Shown here one piece after another: positions 2,056-28,981 of a DNA stretch of 64,000 nucleotides. This DNA is from Escherichia phage vB_EcoM-172859UKE1. Each line of letters opens with the position of its first letter. Position 1 is the stretch's first letter. Under the pieces are notes generated by a model that did not search any database, was not told the DNA's origin, and saw nothing but the letters and a program-made list of their open reading frames with translations. The stretch is from sequence record MZ234025.1, one strand, 5' to 3'. A program made the position numbers and the translations under genes.

Positions 2056-3051
2056 ATGAGCATTACATCTGATGCGGTAAAACATGAAATTAACGGTTTA
2101 TGTGCTTCACAGATTAAAGTATGGTTTAAAGACCATAATGATCGCAGGGCACTTAATTATGAACAAATTGCTATCCAAGTTCATCAATTACTGACTAGTA
2201 AATTTGATTTTCATATGCCGTCTGAAATCTATACTAATCTACCGCGAGCGCTTATTAAAGCATGTAAAGGTTACGGAAAATCAATGGCCGATGGAATCTT
2301 CAGCGCGCTGAATAAACTTAACGTTCTGTCGATGATTAACTCTAACAACATCCTGCGTAATCTAGGACGTACTGATTTGTTCGGTCGTGAACAGTGTAAA
2401 ATGCCTTTGAAATGGATTATTGCTCATCTTAACGAGAACCAAACACGTTTTATGGCCGTAACAGCACGTTTACAAATGGGCCTAGATCGTCAGATGAACT
2501 TTAAAACTCATCCACGTTATTCAGGTTCAACTGACTTTTATAAATGTGAGCTTCAAAAGGTTGCAGGCAAAACTGTCTTAGTAGTTCGTGTAACGTTTGA
2601 AGGACGACGTCAAGGATATTTTGACCTAATTGGCTCTGGTCTTAAACATTGCGGATTTATCGACGAAGTTGATATCAAGCGAGACGGCATTGGATACCGT
2701 ATTGGGTATGTTTGTACTCTTAAAGAAGAGATTTCAGGACCAGCACCAGGACTAAAAGACGTTAGATATAAAGACGAGCTCATTGAAGAAATAAAAGAAG
2801 TTGAATATGATATCAACCAAGAAGATGCTCTTAAAGACCTTATTGACGAACTAAACCAAGACGTTATTCCGGTTCAGAAATTTGAATCAAAACATGCTGA
2901 GCAAATCAAATACTTTGAAGCTTTGATTAACGAACTTAATGTAACTATTCAACAGACTGATGATGAAATCTCACGATTAGCAGGCTTAAATGGTAAAAAT
3001 AAAACAGAACGAGCTAATCTTATTCAAGTAGTAAAACTTCTTAAGGAATGA
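2056..3051 (+). CDS. hypothetical protein with C-terminal coiled-coil-like region
   Basis: 331-aa ORF; heptad-like charged/hydrophobic C-terminus. Confidence 0.55.
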   Translation: MSITSDAVKHEINGLCASQIKVWFKDHNDRRALNYEQIAIQVHQLLTSKFDFHMPSEIYTNLPRALIKACKGYGKSMADGIFSALNKLNVLSMINSNNILRNLGRTDLFGREQCKMPLKWIIAHLNENQTRFMAVTARLQMGLDRQMNFKTHPRYSGSTDFYKCELQKVAGKTVLVVRVTFEGRRQGYFDLIGSGLKHCGFIDEVDIKRDGIGYRIGYVCTLKEEISGPAPGLKDVRYKDELIEEIKEVEYDINQEDALKDLIDELNQDVIPVQKFESKHAEQIKYFEALINELNVTIQQTDDEISRLAGLNGKNKTERANLIQVVKLLKE

Positions 3052-3080
3052 TGTACAACCAAGGATGGTTGGAGTATAAT
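3052..3080 (+). promoter_or_regulatory. early promoter (PeSL-like): -35 TGTACA, hairpin CAACC-aaggat-GGTTG, -10 TATAAT
   Basis: TGTACA 3052-3057, TATAAT 3075-3080, 17-bp spacer containing stem-loop. Confidence 0.6.
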
Positions 3081-3106
3081 AAATTTTTCAACATGAGGAA
3101 TATAAA

Positions 3107-4042
3107 ATGGCTTTTATTACACGTAGAGAACTTATCAAAGAATTTACCTCGAACGCATATACTCCAGGACCTAATCCTATCCGTATGCCTGTAAAGACTC
3201 CTGAAGAGATTGAGGAAATCTGTTCATATTATGGGATTACTTCTCGTAAGTTTACTCAATTTGAATGCGTTACTAACACACCCGTTAAAGAGTTCATTAA
3301 AAATGGTGAGTTCAGCCGTTTATTAGCCAAACAGAAACTTCGTAATTTTTGTATCGGCGGTGAAGGACAATATTTCGCTAAACAGTTCCGAAATAACCTT
3401 AACAATCTGATGGCCATTGCTTCTCGTATTCGTCCTCAAGCAATTAACATGAAACATTTGAAATATACTTACGATAAGTTAGAAATCATGGTTATCAGTG
3501 AGAACGAGTTCACTCTTACGTATAAACCTAAGAATGATAACGTTGCTCGTGTATTCCACCAAGCGTTGGAAGTGTTAGGTGATAATATCCACCAGATTAA
3601 AGCAATTTATTCTCGTGAGCTTAATATTATCAACCCTATCAAGAATAAGGGCCATATCGCTATCCAGGCTCGTGTATCTATTGGTAAAAAGGTTCCTGCG
3701 CCACGGTGGCACAAAGACTCTGAATACTATCAAAATCTTAAAAAGGAAAATGCAACGTTCGAAGCGTCAATTACTACAACCCCAATTGGCAATGCTGAAG
3801 TTCAAGGTGCATATTTTACTGCTCCATCTATATACACTTCACCGTCGACTAAACTGGAAATCTCTAACGGTCTTCTTCCTGCCGAAGATTACTATTATAA
3901 TCAAATCAAAGCCACTGTGGACCAACTGTCTGTTGAACTTGACAAAGCACAAGCTAAGCTTCGTGATGCTCAACAAGTAGTTACCAAGCTCCAGTTGCAG
4001 TACTCTAAACTTTTTAACGCAATGAATGCATTAAAATCATAA
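3107..4042 (+). CDS. hypothetical protein with C-terminal coiled-coil-like region
   Basis: 311-aa ORF following PeSL-like promoter. Confidence 0.55.
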   Translation: MAFITRRELIKEFTSNAYTPGPNPIRMPVKTPEEIEEICSYYGITSRKFTQFECVTNTPVKEFIKNGEFSRLLAKQKLRNFCIGGEGQYFAKQFRNNLNNLMAIASRIRPQAINMKHLKYTYDKLEIMVISENEFTLTYKPKNDNVARVFHQALEVLGDNIHQIKAIYSRELNIINPIKNKGHIAIQARVSIGKKVPAPRWHKDSEYYQNLKKENATFEASITTTPIGNAEVQGAYFTAPSIYTSPSTKLEISNGLLPAEDYYYNQIKATVDQLSVELDKAQAKLRDAQQVVTKLQLQYSKLFNAMNALKS

Positions 4043-14623: not shown

Positions 14624-14797
14624 ATGACGAACGACCCGACCTCTGAAAATTTCGATAAAATCCGTAAAGGCAAAGCAGAAAGAATGAGACGTTTTAAAGA
14701 GTCTTATGATAAAGCTAAAGCCGAAGGAACTATTACATACAAGCCCATTCGATTTAAAAGTTCAAATGAGCCTCTGTACGGTGTACTATGTGGATAG
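14624..14797 (+). CDS. hypothetical basic protein
   Basis: 57-aa ORF after GAGGTG RBS; ends at terminator hairpin. Confidence 0.4.
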   Translation: MTNDPTSENFDKIRKGKAERMRRFKESYDKAKAEGTITYKPIRFKSSNEPLYGVLCG

Positions 14798-14825
14798 GAA
14801 CTCTTCGGAGTTCCTTTTTTTTTTG
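14796..14825 (+). terminator. rho-independent terminator
   Basis: GGAACTC-ttcg-GAGTTCC hairpin followed by 10 T. Confidence 0.8.
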
Positions 14826-14847
14826 CTTTATAAACGGATGATAGAAT
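14821..14847 (+). promoter_or_regulatory. MotA-dependent middle promoter (MotA box TGCTTTA + -10 TAGAAT)
   Basis: TGCTTTA 14824-14830, 11-bp spacer, TAGAAT 14842-14847; upstream of gene 47. Confidence 0.6.
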
Positions 14848-14870
14848 GAATTAACTAATGAGGAAATAAT

Positions 14871-15890
14871 ATGAAAATTTTGCACTTAGGCGACTTCCAT
14901 ATCGGAGTCAAACAAGACGACCCATGGGTTCAAGATATTCAACGTGATGGTATTCGTCAAGCAATTGAATACTCTAAGAAACATGGGATTAAAACTTGGA
15001 TTCAGTACGGTGACTGGTTTGACGTCCGTAAAGCAATAACGCATCGTACAATGGAATTCAATCGTGAAATCGTTGATATGATTTCTAAAGCAGGCATTCA
15101 CGTTCATGTCACGATAGGAAACCATGACATGGCGTTTAAGAATACAATAACACCTAACACTGTTTCTGAATTGTTAACTCAATTTGAAAACTTTACTATT
15201 TACGAACATCCAACTACTGTAGATTTTGACGGATGTCTGATTGATATCGTTCCATGGATGTGTGAAGAAAATACGGGTGAAATCTTAGAGCACATCAAGA
15301 CTTCTTCTGCAGCGTATTGTGTTGGTCACTGGGAACTGAATGGCTTCTATTTCTATAAAGGAATGAAGTCTCATGGGCTTGAACCTGATTTCTTAAAGAC
15401 CTATAAACAAGTCTGGTCCGGCCACTTCCACACAATCTCTGAAGCTGCTAACGTCAAATATATTGGGACACCATGGACCCTTACTGCAGGCGATGAGAAC
15501 GACCCGCGCGGATTCTGGGTATTCGACACTGATGTTGAACGTATGGAATTTATTCCTAATGAAACAACATGGCATCGACGAATCACTTATCCGTTTAAAG
15601 GCAAAATCAATTATTCTGATTATACTAATCTAGCCGTACGTGTTATAGTATCAGAAATTGATTCAGAGTTGACTAAGTTTGAATCTGAACTTGAAAAAGT
15701 AGTTCACTCTCTTCGTATGGTTTCTAAAGTTGATAACAGTGTTGAATCTGATGACGACCAGGAAATCGAGATTAAATCACTTCAAGATATCATTAAAGAA
15801 TATATTGACGCGATTCCAGATATCTCAGACGAAGACAGAGAAGCGCTGGTCAAATATTCCAACGAACTTTATATTGAGGCAACACAATGA
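14871..15890 (+). CDS. 47: recombination endonuclease subunit gp47 (Mre11-like)
   Basis: 339 aa; calcineurin-like phosphoesterase motifs LHLGDFH and GNHD. Confidence 0.9.
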   Translation: MKILHLGDFHIGVKQDDPWVQDIQRDGIRQAIEYSKKHGIKTWIQYGDWFDVRKAITHRTMEFNREIVDMISKAGIHVHVTIGNHDMAFKNTITPNTVSELLTQFENFTIYEHPTTVDFDGCLIDIVPWMCEENTGEILEHIKTSSAAYCVGHWELNGFYFYKGMKSHGLEPDFLKTYKQVWSGHFHTISEAANVKYIGTPWTLTAGDENDPRGFWVFDTDVERMEFIPNETTWHRRITYPFKGKINYSDYTNLAVRVIVSEIDSELTKFESELEKVVHSLRMVSKVDNSVESDDDQEIEIKSLQDIIKEYIDAIPDISDEDREALVKYSNELYIEATQ

Positions 15891-16144
15891 CTTTAGATGA
15901 ATTTAACAATGCTGGACTCAGGCTTGAAGTTGAAATGGACGTTAAAGATGATGATGGATTCGAGAACACTATCAAGTATTGGATTGAGCCATTACGCGTT
16001 GAAGGCAATGAAGTTAAAGCAGTTCATGTCTGCACCGACTGGGCTATTGAATTTAGCTTTAATATAATGGACAACGATACTCCTGGCTCTATTCTTAAAA
16101 TGACTGAAGCATGTATCAAGGATGCGTATAATGACGAAGACTGA
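15887..16144 (+). CDS. hypothetical protein
   Basis: 85-aa acidic ORF, ATGA-coupled to gene 47. Confidence 0.45.
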   Translation: MTLDEFNNAGLRLEVEMDVKDDDGFENTIKYWIEPLRVEGNEVKAVHVCTDWAIEFSFNIMDNDTPGSILKMTEACIKDAYNDED

Positions 16145-16991
16145 TTATGAAACTCAAATTTATAAAATTCTTAAAACCTCCTTCCCTTCGTGGGAAGGAC
16201 TTGATGAGTATTTAAATTTTATAAAAACTAATTCCACTAATAAAGTAAAAGGACTGACTCAGGTTCACCATATACTACCAAAATCTATTTTTCCAGATTT
16301 TAAAACATGTAAATGGAACTTGTGTCATTTAAGTCATTATAACCATTTTATTGCACATAGCATTTTGGCAAAAACTGGCAACCACAAGATGATTAACGCG
16401 CTTCAAAGAATGTATACCGGGCGATTTAATTTAAATTGTACAACGCATGAACTAAATAATATAGCCGAGGCGTATTCTTTAGAATTCGAAAATGTTTGTA
16501 AAGTTAATTCTATAAAAATGACATTATACTATTCCAATCAGGATAATAGAATTAAGATTAGTCAAGCTTTAAAAGCATGGTTTAAAAATCCGGAAAATTT
16601 AAAGAAACACAGAATTATGACAAGTTCAAAGGAATTTAAAGAAACCGTCTCTATTATGACCCAAAAGTGGTTCAGTGACCCTATTAATAAACAAAAACAT
16701 TTGGATGCTTGTCGTAAAATATCTAAAACAGCCGAATATAGAGAATCATTATCGGCTGGAGTTTCACGCAGTTGGAAAAATCCTAAAGTTAGAGACACTC
16801 ATTTGAAATCTAGAAGAAAAGGATATCATTGGGAAAATTTTGATATGCTTTACGTTGAATGGGTTAAAATGAACAAACCTAAATATGTGACTTTTTCTAA
16901 AAATTTAGTCAATTTAGGATATCCTATACAAAGTTCTTTACAGGCTTTAGTTTCTGAATTCATGAGGAAAAATTTAAGTGAAAACATTTAA
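16131..16991 (+). mobile_element. free-standing HNH homing endonuclease gene between genes 47 and 46
   Basis: HNH-like motif VHHILPKS...CKWNLCHLSHYNHFIAH; T4 has no such gene between 47 and 46 as far as I recall; 3' end overlaps the gene 46 start. Confidence 0.65.
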
Positions 16992-18666
16992 ATTAAATCG
17001 TGTTCGTTATAAAAATATAATGTCTGTTGGGCAAAATTTTATCGATATCCAATTAGATAAAGTCCAAAAGACCTTAATCACAGGTAAAAATGGCGGTGGT
17101 AAATCTACGATGTTAGAAGCCATTACTTTCGGACTTTTCGGTAAACCATTTCGTGACGTTAAGAAAGGACAAATCATTAATAGCACGAACAAGAAAGAGC
17201 TCTTAGTCGAGCTTTGGATGGAATTCGATGATAAAAAATACTTCATTAGACGTGGCCAAAAGCCCAATATTTTCGAAATCTCCGTTGACGGTGTTCGTCT
17301 TGATGAATCTGCCAGCAGTCGTGACTTCCAAGAAGAATTTGAACGTAGCATCGGAATGTCATACGCGTCTTTTAAACAAATCGTTGTGCTTGGGACGGCA
17401 GGGTATACCCCTTTCATGGCTCTTAGCACCCCTGCTCGTAGAAAACTTGTCGAAGACCTTTTAGAAGTCGGCACACTCGCTGAAATGGATAAAATCAATA
17501 AGTCTCAAGTTCGAGAACTTAATTCCCAGGGACAAGTTCTCGATGCCAAGAAAGATGGTATTATCCAACAAATTAAGATTTATAACGAGAATATCGAACG
17601 TCAAAAGAAATTATCTGGTGATAATGTAGCGCGTCTACAGAATATGTATGACGACCTAGCCAAAGAAGCTCGTTCATTAAAAGCAGAAATCGAAGAAGCT
17701 AATGAGCGACTACTTAATATCGTTCTTGATGAAGACCCTACTGAGGCATTCAATAAGATAGGACAAGAAGCATTCTTGATTAAATCTAAAATTGACTCAT
17801 ATAACAAAGTTATTAAGATGTATCATGACGGTGGCACATGTCCTACTTGTGCATCACAGTTGCACCAGGGTGATCCTATTGTCTCTAAGATTACCGATAA
17901 GCTTCATGAATGTAATAACTCATTCGAGCAACTTACCTGTCACAGAGATAATCTGAGTGTCCTAGTGGACGAATATAGAGCTAATGTTAAGACTAAACAG
18001 GACCTTGCATCTGATATTCGTACCAAGAAACAAGCAATGATTGCCACTATTGATAAAGCTAAGAAAGTTAAAGCTGCAATAGAACAAGCCTCGGCGGAAT
18101 TTATCGACCATGCCGATGAGATAGCTTTGCTTCAAAAAGAACTTGATAAAATCATTAAAACAAAATCGGATATCGTTCTTGAAAAATACCATCGTGGTAT
18201 TATCACAGATATGTTAAAAGATTCTGGTATTAAAGGTGCTATCATTAAAAAATATGTGCCTCTGTTCAACAAGCAGATTAACCATTATCTTAAAATCATG
18301 GAAGCCGATTACGTGTTTTCTATTGATGAAGAATTCAATGAATCTATAAAATCACGTGGCCGTGAAGATTTTAGTTATGCTTCATTTAGTCAAGGTGAAA
18401 AGGCACGTATCGATATCGCATTGTTGTTTACATGGCGAGATATTGCTGAAAAGGTCTCTGGTGTTAAAATCAACACTCTGATTCTTGATGAGGTTTTTGA
18501 TGGGGCAGTTGATTCTGAAGCTGTTAAGGCTATAGATACCATTCTTGGAAGTTTACAAAATACTAACGTGTTCATTATTTCTCATAGGGACCATGACCCT
18601 CAACGTTATGGACAACATTTGCAAATGAGCAAAGTTGGACGATTTACTGTAATGACTGTTTCATAA
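16978..18666 (+). CDS. 46: recombination endonuclease subunit gp46 (Rad50/SbcC-like ATPase), GTG start
   Basis: Walker A GKNGGGKST, Zn-hook-like CPTC, C-terminal LILDEVFDG; first codon is GTG at 16978. Confidence 0.9.
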   Translation: MKTFKLNRVRYKNIMSVGQNFIDIQLDKVQKTLITGKNGGGKSTMLEAITFGLFGKPFRDVKKGQIINSTNKKELLVELWMEFDDKKYFIRRGQKPNIFEISVDGVRLDESASSRDFQEEFERSIGMSYASFKQIVVLGTAGYTPFMALSTPARRKLVEDLLEVGTLAEMDKINKSQVRELNSQGQVLDAKKDGIIQQIKIYNENIERQKKLSGDNVARLQNMYDDLAKEARSLKAEIEEANERLLNIVLDEDPTEAFNKIGQEAFLIKSKIDSYNKVIKMYHDGGTCPTCASQLHQGDPIVSKITDKLHECNNSFEQLTCHRDNLSVLVDEYRANVKTKQDLASDIRTKKQAMIATIDKAKKVKAAIEQASAEFIDHADEIALLQKELDKIIKTKSDIVLEKYHRGIITDMLKDSGIKGAIIKKYVPLFNKQINHYLKIMEADYVFSIDEEFNESIKSRGREDFSYASFSQGEKARIDIALLFTWRDIAEKVSGVKINTLILDEVFDGAVDSEAVKAIDTILGSLQNTNVFIISHRDHDPQRYGQHLQMSKVGRFTVMTVS

Positions 18667-25691: not shown

Positions 25692-27377
25692 ATGAAAAAA
25701 GCTGTTATTCTTGGTGCTGGATTGGCAACTCGTTTATATCCAATAACGCATCATATTCCTAAGGTGCTTGTTAACTATAAACAAGACACTATTCTGAGCA
25801 ATTTGTATACAATTTATTCTGACCTTGGCGCAGATGAAATTATTGTAGTAGTTCATTCAAAATTTGCTGAAACTGTTCGAGCTTATTGTGAGCAAGAAGG
25901 GTTCAATGTGACTATTCGTACAGTTGATGAAGCGTATGGTTCTGCTTATGCTCTTGCTAAATTACACAAAGATTTAGACGGCCATAATGTAATTGTTAAC
26001 TGGTGTGATATTATTCCTGATTTTGGTTCATGGTCTTGGAATGTTAACGCAATCTATGTTAAGGGTGACGAATGTCGATATAATTTCGACGGTGAAAATA
26101 TCACTAACGTAGGTTCAACAGGTGGTAATGTTGTAGGAATTTATCAGTTCAAAGACTGGGAATTCTATATGGGTTCTACCGATGAGGAAATTCATGAATA
26201 CTGCAAAGGACGTGATTTCGTAGAATTCCTTTACAGCGGCGCATTCAATAAATCAGAGCTTATGAATATCATCGACCTTGGTGATATGCCTAAACTTGAA
26301 AAGGCCCATGAAGTTCGTGAACTGAACCGTAGTTTTAATGCAGTTGAAATTGGCGAAGAAACTGTAACTAAATTCGCATTAACCGAACAGGGTCGAGCTC
26401 TTCAGAAAGATGAGATTTCGTGGTATTTGAAAGTGAAATCAGATTCAGTTCCTCAGTTAGTTTCTGTTAATGAAAATAACTTTGAAATGGAACGCATTAA
26501 AGGTAAGCCGGCATTTGAATATATTAAATCAAAATCAAGTCTTGCTCGTCCACAAATTGTTGATGCAATTTTAGATGCACTGAAATTCAGCACAGACACT
26601 TATTTTGTAAGTCCTGAAACTGTTCGTCGTGATTTCACTAAAGAATTCTATACGAAAGTTATTGATCGTTGTGAAAGCATTCAACCATTGATTGATTCAT
26701 TTGGTAAAATCACACACGTGAACTACACTAAGATTGGACGTCTGAAGCCAATGCTGAAACAAGCTTTAGAACACCTTATTCGTTATCATAACCGTTCTCA
26801 GGGACAGTACTCTGTTATTCATGGTGACCCGAACTTCAGTAATACTATGATTACTGATAACGGCGAAGTCAAGTTTATCGACCCTCGTGGATATTTTGGT
26901 GAAACCAAGATTTACGGGCCAAAATTGTATGATGAAGCTAAAGTGCTTTATGCTGTTTCAGGTTATGATGAATTCAATGCTAATCCGACCTGGGGGCAGT
27001 TTACTATTGATGAAACAACTTGTAATGTGACTATTAACATCAATCCATTAGTTTACAAATATGGAAAGATGAGTTCGTTTAACGAGTATCATCATTTGGC
27101 AGTGGCAATTATCTGGATTGCATTAGGTGGTTATTTCAAGAATAATCCACTTAAAGCGGTAGCCGCATATTATAAAGGTATGGAACTTCTGACTAAGCAA
27201 TTACGTAACATGGGCCGTGTACTTCAAGACGGCTCTATTAGTTATGACGTAGCAGAACCTGTAACGGCTACTCTGATTACAAAAAATCCTGGTAAATGGG
27301 TACTAACTGATAAAGAAACTGGTGTTTCCTATCGTCCAATCGGTGGCGATATCACTCATCAATGGGAACGAATCTAA
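25692..27377 (+). CDS. bifunctional sugar-1-phosphate nucleotidyltransferase / kinase-like protein
   Basis: N-terminal AVILGAGLATRLYPIT (NTP-transferase G-x-G-x-R); C-terminal HGDPNFSN and IDPRG resemble APH/anomeric sugar kinase catalytic motifs. Confidence 0.7.
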   Translation: MKKAVILGAGLATRLYPITHHIPKVLVNYKQDTILSNLYTIYSDLGADEIIVVVHSKFAETVRAYCEQEGFNVTIRTVDEAYGSAYALAKLHKDLDGHNVIVNWCDIIPDFGSWSWNVNAIYVKGDECRYNFDGENITNVGSTGGNVVGIYQFKDWEFYMGSTDEEIHEYCKGRDFVEFLYSGAFNKSELMNIIDLGDMPKLEKAHEVRELNRSFNAVEIGEETVTKFALTEQGRALQKDEISWYLKVKSDSVPQLVSVNENNFEMERIKGKPAFEYIKSKSSLARPQIVDAILDALKFSTDTYFVSPETVRRDFTKEFYTKVIDRCESIQPLIDSFGKITHVNYTKIGRLKPMLKQALEHLIRYHNRSQGQYSVIHGDPNFSNTMITDNGEVKFIDPRGYFGETKIYGPKLYDEAKVLYAVSGYDEFNANPTWGQFTIDETTCNVTININPLVYKYGKMSSFNEYHHLAVAIIWIALGGYFKNNPLKAVAAYYKGMELLTKQLRNMGRVLQDGSISYDVAEPVTATLITKNPGKWVLTDKETGVSYRPIGGDITHQWERI

Positions 27378-27820: not shown

Positions 27821-28981
27821 ATGAATACTTTTAAAATCGGAACGAATTTTGATTTAGCTCTTCTTGATAAAATCGTAGAGCTCAATAAAACTTATCCTAA
27901 TAGCTTGATAAATGAAGTATACGGCTCTACAAGAGAAATGGCTTTTGTAGCAGCCAGACCTGATTTTAGGCTTCCTGACGTTGACAAAAAGATGTTAGAA
28001 GATTACGTTAAACGTTGTAACGAATTAGGTATTTGCTTTAACTATACACTCAACACGATAAATCCTGGTTCAAAAAGAGAACTAGTTGAGTGGAAGAAGA
28101 AAGCTATTCAGGATTATGTTCAGTATCTTTGGTCAATAGGCGTATGGCGTATTACTATCGCTAACCCTGTTGTTATGGAAATTGTTCGTGAAGTCAATAA
28201 AGACATTGAGATTGAAGTTTCAACAATTCTACATGTCGATGCTGTAACTCAAATCAAATACTTGCATGACCAATATAATATCAAAAAGGTCTGCTGTGGA
28301 ATTCATAAGAACCGTTCAGTTTCTTTCCTGAAGCGTGCAGCAGAGTTTTGCAATAAGAACAATATAATATTTGAAGTTCTTGTAAATGAGTTCTGTTCTA
28401 ATGCTGGTAAAGGGTATACAACACATTGTAGCTATCGTGACTCTTGCTATATTTTCCATAGTACTGATGTTACAGCTGATGATGCTAAATCCTTAAACGG
28501 ATATCCTATGCAGCACTGTATTAAAGCTCGTGATACAGACCCATTTAACTGGTTGAGAACTCGTTTTGTTCGTCCTCAAGATTTGAAACTTTATAATGAT
28601 ATTGGTATCACTCAATTCAAAGTTTCAGGACGTACAGGTAGCACAGACTACATTTTGAAAGTTCTTGAAGCATACGCTTCTGAAAAGTTTGAAGGTAATT
28701 TGTTAGAACTGTGGAAGCCTTTAGAGACTATTTTCACTCTTGAAAACGAAACTGAGTTTTCACATACAGTAAATATTGAAACCTCTTTGTTAGATGGCTT
28801 TTTAGAAAAAAGGTGGTTCAGACATCCAGATTTCGATTGTGCTAATGAAATCTGCGGGACGACGTGTACATATTGTGAAAGATATTATAAACGTCAATTA
28901 TCTAAAAACGGGTTAGCAGAAAACTCTATATCTATTATTGATATAACTAACTCTGATGACGCTTTGAGGTACCCGGAATGA
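27821..28981 (+). CDS. U32-family-like Cys-rich protein (possible Fe-S enzyme)
   Basis: 386 aa; FNYTLNT, EVLVNEFCS...HCSYRDSC, FKVSGRTGS resemble U32 motifs; C-terminal CxxxCxxxCxYC. Confidence 0.55.
   Translation: MNTFKIGTNFDLALLDKIVELNKTYPNSLINEVYGSTREMAFVAARPDFRLPDVDKKMLEDYVKRCNELGICFNYTLNTINPGSKRELVEWKKKAIQDYVQYLWSIGVWRITIANPVVMEIVREVNKDIEIEVSTILHVDAVTQIKYLHDQYNIKKVCCGIHKNRSVSFLKRAAEFCNKNNIIFEVLVNEFCSNAGKGYTTHCSYRDSCYIFHSTDVTADDAKSLNGYPMQHCIKARDTDPFNWLRTRFVRPQDLKLYNDIGITQFKVSGRTGSTDYILKVLEAYASEKFEGNLLELWKPLETIFTLENETEFSHTVNIETSLLDGFLEKRWFRHPDFDCANEICGTTCTYCERYYKRQLSKNGLAENSISIIDITNSDDALRYPE

Follow-up and report, generated by a model that had tools for sequence, protein, structure and literature searches.

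The window, by which we mean the whole 64,000-nucleotide stretch of Escherichia phage vB_EcoM-172859UKE1 (MZ234025.1) that was analyzed, contains a free-standing open reading frame (ORF) immediately upstream of gene 46 that we identify with high confidence as a Mob-family HNH homing endonuclease gene. The overall explanation that we favor, and regard as likely, is that this gene stands in place of gene 46.1 and that its product would act on the 5' end of gene 46. It is an ordinary, expected kind of element in T-even genomes, and near-identical copies have already been labeled by automatic annotation. What is added here is a defined replacement of 46.1, a tie to gene 46 that extends across genera, and a specific prediction of the target. 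Our literature searches found no paper describing the gene.

The locus and its expression

The ORF runs from an ATG at 16131 to a TAA at 16989-16991 on the + strand (861 nt), and all 286 codons are intact. The ATG lies 8 nt 3' of an AAGGA sequence (16118-16122) and is the annotated start in relatives; an alternative in-frame ATG at 16122 is without a Shine-Dalgarno sequence. The genes of the window follow the T-even order 55, 47, 46.2, ORF, 46, 45.2, rpbA, 45. Gene 47 (14871-15890, + strand) encodes the Mre11/SbcD-like nuclease subunit, assigned from a Pfam Metallophos match and the annotations of relatives. Gene 46 (16978-18666, + strand), the putative target gene, encodes the Rad50/SbcC-like ATPase subunit of 562 amino acids (Pfam AAA_23 and SMC_N, and the annotations of relatives). 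An earlier reading of this DNA, made from the sequence only, had placed the ORF between genes 47 and 46. Gene 46 is indeed the downstream neighbor, but the gene directly upstream is a homolog of 46.2 (15887-16144, + strand, 85 codons; Pfam T4_Y03C, E = 1.5e-43) and not 47.

The ORF overlaps both of its neighbors. The stop codon of 46.2 (TGA 16142-16144) overlaps its start, and its own last codons and stop cover the opening codons of gene 46, a 14-nt overlap (16978-16991, + strand) that bears out the one with a GTG start described in the sequence-only reading. The GTG at 16978 occupies the position of an ATG in relatives that lack the ORF; gene 46 of T4 also starts with GTG. Nucleotides 1 (G) and 7 (A) of gene 46 are specific to endonuclease carriers, and the gene 46 Shine-Dalgarno sequence (GAGG, 16964-16967) lies inside the 3' coding part of the endonuclease gene. 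The overlaps at the two ends suggest translational coupling.

A search for promoters gave no T4 late promoter (TATAAATA) within 20 kb and about as many sigma-70-like sites as chance alone would produce (18, with 16.2 expected), and no + strand terminator was found inside the endonuclease gene. The gene therefore looks like a promoterless cassette that would be read together with 47, 46.2 and 46. A terminator is present at 14796-14815, 5' of gene 47. Several of the mob and seg genes of T4 have been described as promoterless cassettes (PMC2988022).

Folds at both ribosome-binding sites are no better than those of shuffled sequences (z = -0.15 and -1.5). An inverted repeat (AATTTAAGTG / CATTTAAATT; window 16961-17002) spans the 3' end of the endonuclease gene and the first codons of gene 46, and can enclose the gene 46 GTG in a 10-bp stem that is not significant against shuffles (z = -1.5). 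The GTG-burying stem is not predicted for APCEc01, the one endonuclease-lacking phage that was folded.

Further along the same gene order, phage AV111 has a 249-amino acid ORF without a Pfam match between rpbA and gene 45 (L088:6863-7612). The window has no such insertion, and neither do the other Mosigvirus loci that were compared.

Protein family and predicted fold

The ORF protein matches PHROG 655 'homing endonuclease' with E = 4.5e-31, and a profile search returned 667 homologs at E<=1e-5, many of which contain NUMOD3. In tblastn comparisons it is 29% identical to T4 MobD over 82% of its length (E = 6e-13) and 36% identical to MobC over 59% of its length, and it aligns with MobE-annotated proteins of other phages at 37-41% identity over the first ~90 residues only. 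On this sequence homology to T4 MobA-E it is placed in the Mob family. T4 MobA-E have been assigned to the same His-Me group as 5h0o (PMC5714182). No second Mob paralog was found in the window.

Both halves of the HNH-type motif quoted in the sequence-only reading are present, the first (VHHILPKS) spanning residues 45-52 and the second (NLCHLSHYNHFIAH) residues 63-76, and the protein sequence shows the spacing N-L-x-x-L-x4-H-x3-H. Conservation of the endonuclease motif had been set as a test beforehand, and in an alignment of 116 homologs H46, H47, I48, P50, N63, H72 and H76 are invariant. In HNH nucleases a histidine at the end of strand 1 is expected to act as general base, the asparagine to be structural and the histidines of the helix to bind metal. 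The HH dyad, the structural asparagine and the metal-binding histidines on the helix, by which an HNH or His-Me nuclease is recognized, are all conserved here.

An HNH profile search, also proposed beforehand, gave a divided outcome. Pfam and NCBIfam scans of the ORF protein itself yielded no HNH match (Pfam E<=1), only noise below the cut-offs (GerD, DUF1543 and the like). The homolog P0014 passes the Pfam HNH cut-off of 21.4 bits with 21.7 bits, over a stretch that aligns to residues 42-67 of the window protein, and T4 MobD reaches 18.1 bits with the curated HNH profile on the aligned stretch (cut-off 21.4). A profile match (Pfam PF01844 or related) is a means of detection and no defining property of HNH nucleases. 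Searches of PDB sequences by phmmer, with the protein and with the family profile, gave no relevant match.

AlphaFold2 models were obtained with pLDDT values of 91.4 for the full protein and 91.1 for residues 1-105. H46 and H47 lie in a strand formed by residues 43-47, N63 is located just before a second strand (64-68), and H72 and H76 lie in a helix comprising residues 69-80. The motif residues are thus confidently modeled on a beta-beta-alpha unit, an arrangement that would correspond to the beta-beta-alpha-metal fold, and from the alignment and the models the HNH (His-Me finger) catalytic core would comprise residues from about 40 to 80 (16248-16370, + strand). A Foldseek search against the PDB gave no match below E = 1, and HNH chains (teneurin, retron) turned up only among the matches that were not significant.

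The modeled C-terminal half is all helical. Residues 131-232 (16521-16826, + strand) form three helical repeats of ~34 amino acids, with helix pairs and the pattern S..x..W.NP....KH. They are the counterpart of the NUMOD3 DNA-binding repeats in homologs, the NUMOD3 matches of P0014, P0018 and P0044 mapping to residues from about 136 to 226. Residues 233-280 (16827-16970, + strand) form a helix-turn-helix-like domain, and the NUMOD1 or I-HmuI-like matches of homologs map to residues 235-275. Because of the models and the domain matches of the homologs, we assign a predicted architecture of an N-terminal HNH nuclease, three NUMOD3-like helical DNA-binding repeats and a C-terminal helix-turn-helix. 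An N-terminal nuclease followed by C-terminal DNA-binding modules is the two-part organization of Mob proteins. The suggestion of a free-standing homing endonuclease, made from the letters alone, is upheld by the PHROG 655 match, the homology to T4 MobD, MobC and MobE, and a model that contains the beta-beta-alpha unit.

T4 MobD has the same HNH residues as well as the alignable length given above, and both proteins contain a C-terminal HW.N.D.LY..W......P....F......GYP domain. However, the identity is only 29%, and mobD occupies another genomic site, between nrdC.11 and mobD.1. 'MobD-like' is the GenBank label of near-identical copies of the window gene. MobD has been listed with activity not determined and target unknown; among the T4 Mob proteins a demonstrated activity was listed for MobE alone (a nick in nrdB), with the MobA target given by personal communication and the targets of MobB-D unknown (PMC2988022).

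The HNH endonuclease I-HmuI of Bacillus phage SPO1 is similarly built, with an extended DNA-binding region after the nuclease domain and with HNH, NUMOD-like helices and helix-turn-helix as its modules, and ORF homologs match the Pfam I-HmuI_NUMOD-like domain over a part aligned to residues 235-275. It differs in being intron-encoded and in belonging to a different His-Me group, HNH_3 (PMC5714182). The ORF protein gave no sequence match to the I-HmuI PDB chain.

Distribution of the gene and the fate of gene 46.1

A megablast search with the 47-46 region as query found 424 records, of which nine hold the ORF (9 of 153 when Mosigvirus records are counted). These are AV112, AV113, G2469, phiEC1, SQ17, F2 (two records), PNJ-9 and pEK20, in which the gene is labeled 'MobD-like homing endonuclease', 'HNH endonuclease', 'mobile endonuclease' or 'hypothetical'. 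The remaining Mosigvirus records have at the identical start position the 79-amino acid gene 46.1 (DUF5487); 94% of close relatives are without the endonuclease gene and keep 46.1. Among 71 diverse T4-like loci from IMG/VR not one has the ORF, and scanning for exact matches to the sequence where the endonuclease gene joins gene 46 gave no hits in JGI metagenome contigs and none in IMG/VR. The comparison across T4-like phages that the sequence-only reading had called for therefore finds a gene that is far from universal. Free-standing, sporadic occurrence between conserved genes is the habit of Mob-type elements, and there is a strong probability that the endonuclease gene is a horizontally acquired, sporadic element.

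The left junction with gene 46.1 is well defined. In alignment the ORF is identical to 46.1 through position 16152 and diverges from 16153, and these first 22 nt (16131-16152, + strand; MTKTDYE) are the start of 46.1, the annotated start of which in APCEc01 is at this position. At the other end, 46.1 runs 14 nt into gene 46 in phages without the endonuclease, just as the ORF does here. Because the first 22 nt and the 14-nt overlap are common to both, the alignments indicate that the endonuclease gene has replaced the body of 46.1. The gene had been described as inserted; that holds in so far as the ORF is missing from most relatives, but the event was no simple insertion.

The interval between 47 and 46 has other contents elsewhere in T4-like phages. 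In the loci L055, L057, L059 and L063 (at about 2300-3004) and L079 (2261-2992) it holds either a metallophosphatase-like ORF of 183-205 amino acids or an N6/N4 DNA methyltransferase (Pfam E = 2.4e-33), and in further phages it is empty or has 46.1 alone, 46.2 alone, or 46.1 and 46.2 together. It is a variable cargo slot in T4-like phages.

The closest relatives of the ORF protein are all encoded directly 5' of gene 46 in other phages. The homolog in Salmonella phage Melville (Gelderlandvirus) is 56% identical and lies between 47 and 46, directly after 47, and that of the metagenomic T4-like contig L090 is 54% identical and adjoins gene 46 upstream. Both of these homologs overlap gene 46 by the same 14 nt, xTGAAAACxTTTAA. 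A 45% identical homolog is found in Tequatrovirus (T6 and Aplg8; about 71 of 504 records), where 46.1 is intact and the homolog follows it, ending 15 nt short of gene 46. The placement thus differs, in that Tequatrovirus keeps its 46.1, the Melville copy follows 47, and the window copy has replaced 46.1. The T2 copy of the T6-type gene (L006:2432-3284) is frameshifted into overlapping ORFs at 2432-3046 and 3027-3284. It is a decaying copy, as expected for a selfish element. The presence of the same family at the same site in three genera and one metagenomic lineage argues for repeated invasion.

An unrelated ORF with matches to HNH_3 (E = 5e-7) and AP2 (E = 1.5e-6) is found in a Pseudotevenvirus-like IMG/VR contig of 176.8 kb (L082:2474-3004). 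It too lies directly 5' of gene 46, and its stop overlaps the gene 46 start. An unrelated endonuclease at the same site points to independent colonization by a different endonuclease family, and because both this ORF and the homologs are found there, the start of gene 46 is a recurrent landing site for endonuclease genes. A mobB-like 'homing endonuclease' gene abuts the 3' end of gene 46 in F2, where it is a second such gene (L002:4293-4785, - strand), and in Aplg8 (L005:4983-5699, - strand), so that gene 46 of these phages is bracketed by two endonuclease genes.

The gene 46 patch and the proposed mechanism

Within the first 62 nt of gene 46 the carriers differ from the common non-carrier allele at 13 positions, comprising nt 1, nt 7 and 11 substitutions that are clustered in the 29 nt from nt 34 to nt 62 (codons 12-21; 17011-17039, + strand). 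We term the carrier form of this patch type B and the common form type A. The background of differences is 1.5-2.2%, giving Bonferroni-corrected p values of 4e-10 to 2e-8 for the cluster, and past nt 62 the two alleles are about 98% identical. Three of the substitutions change the protein (Q12K, G19Q and P21F); residues 12 and 19-21 of gp46 vary across T4-like phages generally. Adjoining the patch is a conserved block that encodes gp46 up to and including the Walker A motif.

All Mosigvirus carriers have type B, both the nine GenBank records and eight further SRA/ENA assemblies, and none has type A. Among the Mosigvirus non-carriers five have type B (WFL6982, WFK, ESCO47, PTE-Eco05 and G2285) and about 137 have type A. 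The association of the endonuclease gene with type B is therefore complete (17 of 17 carriers), with Fisher p = 2e-11 for the GenBank set, the genomes of which are not independent samples. In Tequatrovirus a B-like allele occurs in about 71 carrier records and in about 71 non-carrier records, T4 included, and an A-like allele (VRYQNIMSVGGNPID) in about 360 non-carrier records. In Melville and L090, too, the patch stretch is unlike that of their relatives without the endonuclease.

We infer from these alleles that type A contains the putative target and that type B is a resistant, co-converted form, or alternatively that the type B patch is merely a co-converted flank. The patch is only 34-62 nt from the gene, a distance at which simple linkage could produce the association, and type B-like sequence is also present in phages without the gene (T4, PTE-Eco05); hence the patch is no proof of the target. 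We put the location of the putative target within the type A patch at a little short of an even chance. Two simpler proposals were rejected. Direct copying of the patch from a Tequatrovirus or Gelderlandvirus donor is ruled out by nt 15-33 of the carriers' gene 46, which are Mosigvirus-specific, and Gln19 of gp46 is not exclusive to carriers, being found in many T4-like phages without the gene.

A close parallel is T4 mobE, a promoterless, free-standing HNH gene between nrdA and nrdB. MobE-dependent nicks are made at nt 122-126 of the downstream nrdB; the nicked stretch differs between carriers and non-carriers and adjoins a conserved block (PMC2790892; Wilson & Edgell 2009). The N-terminal HNH domains of MobE and the ORF protein are homologous, the ORF, like mobE, looks like a promoterless cassette in an existing operon, and both genes directly precede one that is essential. 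Near the 5' end of that downstream gene each system has a short polymorphic stretch, beside a conserved block, that separates carriers from non-carriers. The targets differ, being nrdB for MobE and presumably gene 46 for the ORF protein. The C-terminal half of the latter consists of three helical repeats and a helix-turn-helix, whereas the MobE-annotated proteins match its first ~90 residues only, and no internal terminator was found in the ORF. For MobE there are in vivo nicking and inheritance data; the ORF protein is known from its sequence and model.

The explanation that we favor is as follows. The endonuclease gene entered a Mosigvirus (RB69/JS09-like) genome and displaced the body of 46.1, retaining the 46.1 translation start that overlaps the 46.2 stop. 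It now provides the ribosome-binding site and the GTG start for gene 46, and would be transcribed with 47, 46.2 and 46, its own promoter apparently being absent. On co-infection with a relative that lacks the gene, the enzyme would nick or cut gene 46 of that relative near its 5' end, with the region of codons 12-21 of the type A allele as the likeliest place. Repair templated by the carrier genome would then transfer the endonuclease gene and, along with it, the neighboring type B patch, and that patch would protect carriers from their own enzyme.

Several features of the copies bear upon this. Six copies were compared by nucleotide; all are intact and 99.3-99.7% identical, with seven synonymous and four non-synonymous variable sites. 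Ten more have an identical protein, and thus all 16 of 16 copies read intact. The carriers come from Denmark, China and South Korea. Two flanking segments, the 5' half of gene 47 (14780-15380) and the 3' end of gene 46 (18380-18580), each exist as two alleles that are 70-82% identical in phages that are otherwise about 98% identical. Four of the four possible combinations of these alleles are found among the carriers, and we conclude that there is fine-scale mosaicism. On the left flank no co-conversion tract common to the carriers is visible in the alignment. We lean towards an endonuclease that is still active.

The same observations have to be weighed under a reading in which there is no homing. 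The gene could have arrived once, by illegitimate recombination in a type B lineage, and have been carried since by vertical inheritance and ordinary shuffling as an intact but stranded gene, homing having been lost for example through missing sensitive sites or an inactive enzyme; type B would then be merely a linked ancestral polymorphism. Linkage is to be expected over 34-62 nt, and the type B allele without the gene in five Mosigvirus records, the B-like form in T4, the left flank with no visible common tract, and the rarity of the gene (9 of 153 records, and not found in JGI metagenome contigs or IMG/VR) would all be consistent with this. However, all 16 copies read are intact, the catalytic residues are kept and the variation is mostly synonymous. 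Moreover, with type A in about 137 of 153 relatives there is no shortage of potential targets, and the occupation of the same site by the same family in three genera and one metagenomic lineage is not what a single stranded arrival would lead us to expect. We consider this reading unlikely.

We find it much harder to accept that the product is a domesticated nuclease or DNA-binding protein, kept for the benefit of the phage and not for its own spread. It might serve in exclusion of co-infecting relatives, in control of gene 46 translation via the overlap, or in partnership with gp46/47. If the function were useful we would expect it to be common, but 94% of close relatives are without the gene and keep 46.1, and the T2 copy has decayed. 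Gene 46 does take its ribosome-binding site and start codon from the 3' end of the endonuclease gene, and a hairpin can enclose the GTG, although that hairpin is not significant (z = -1.5). It has been pointed out that domestication of endonucleases is not excludable by sequence alone (PMC10448857). Lastly, a chance motif in a non-nuclease protein is extremely improbable, since despite the lack of a Pfam, NCBIfam or PDB sequence match for the ORF protein the motif residues are invariant in 116 homologs, the protein is homologous to the T4 Mob proteins, and HNH is the best structural match of the modeled beta-beta-alpha fold.

Homing into gene 46, the reading that we prefer, can be extended to the other genera. 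Tentatively, and with somewhat less conviction than for the location of the target, we propose that the dimorphism of codons 12-21 is a sensitivity/resistance polymorphism kept by a single Mob lineage that tracks the gene 46 start in at least three T-even genera. If so, the patch would pinpoint the recognition site, type B-like patches would have crossed genera with the endonuclease or in its wake, and the T4 allele would be a 'scar' from a lost copy. The element would have become entrenched by supplying the start signals of the essential gene 46, the product of which is also believed to act on the breaks by which homing is driven, as a processing factor. gp46 and gp47 are listed as only possibly involved in homing (PMC2988022).

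The 46.2/46 junction of RB69-like phages is a new home for an uncharacterized Mob-family endonuclease. It offers a 29-nt candidate target in gene 46 with natural alleles that are putatively sensitive (type A) and resistant (type B), and each of the three observed combinations is represented by isolated phages: carriers, all with type B, and non-carriers with either allele. A second mapped Mob system would help to define how such enzymes recognize DNA. For annotation, Mob-like HNH homing endonuclease is the fitting name; several GenBank records still say hypothetical.

Elsewhere in the window, two large ORFs lie 3' of the DNA polymerase gene 43. The first (25692-27377; 561 amino acids) belongs to a PHROG family without an assigned function, and the second (27821-28981; 386 amino acids) falls in a PHROG annotated as peptidase.
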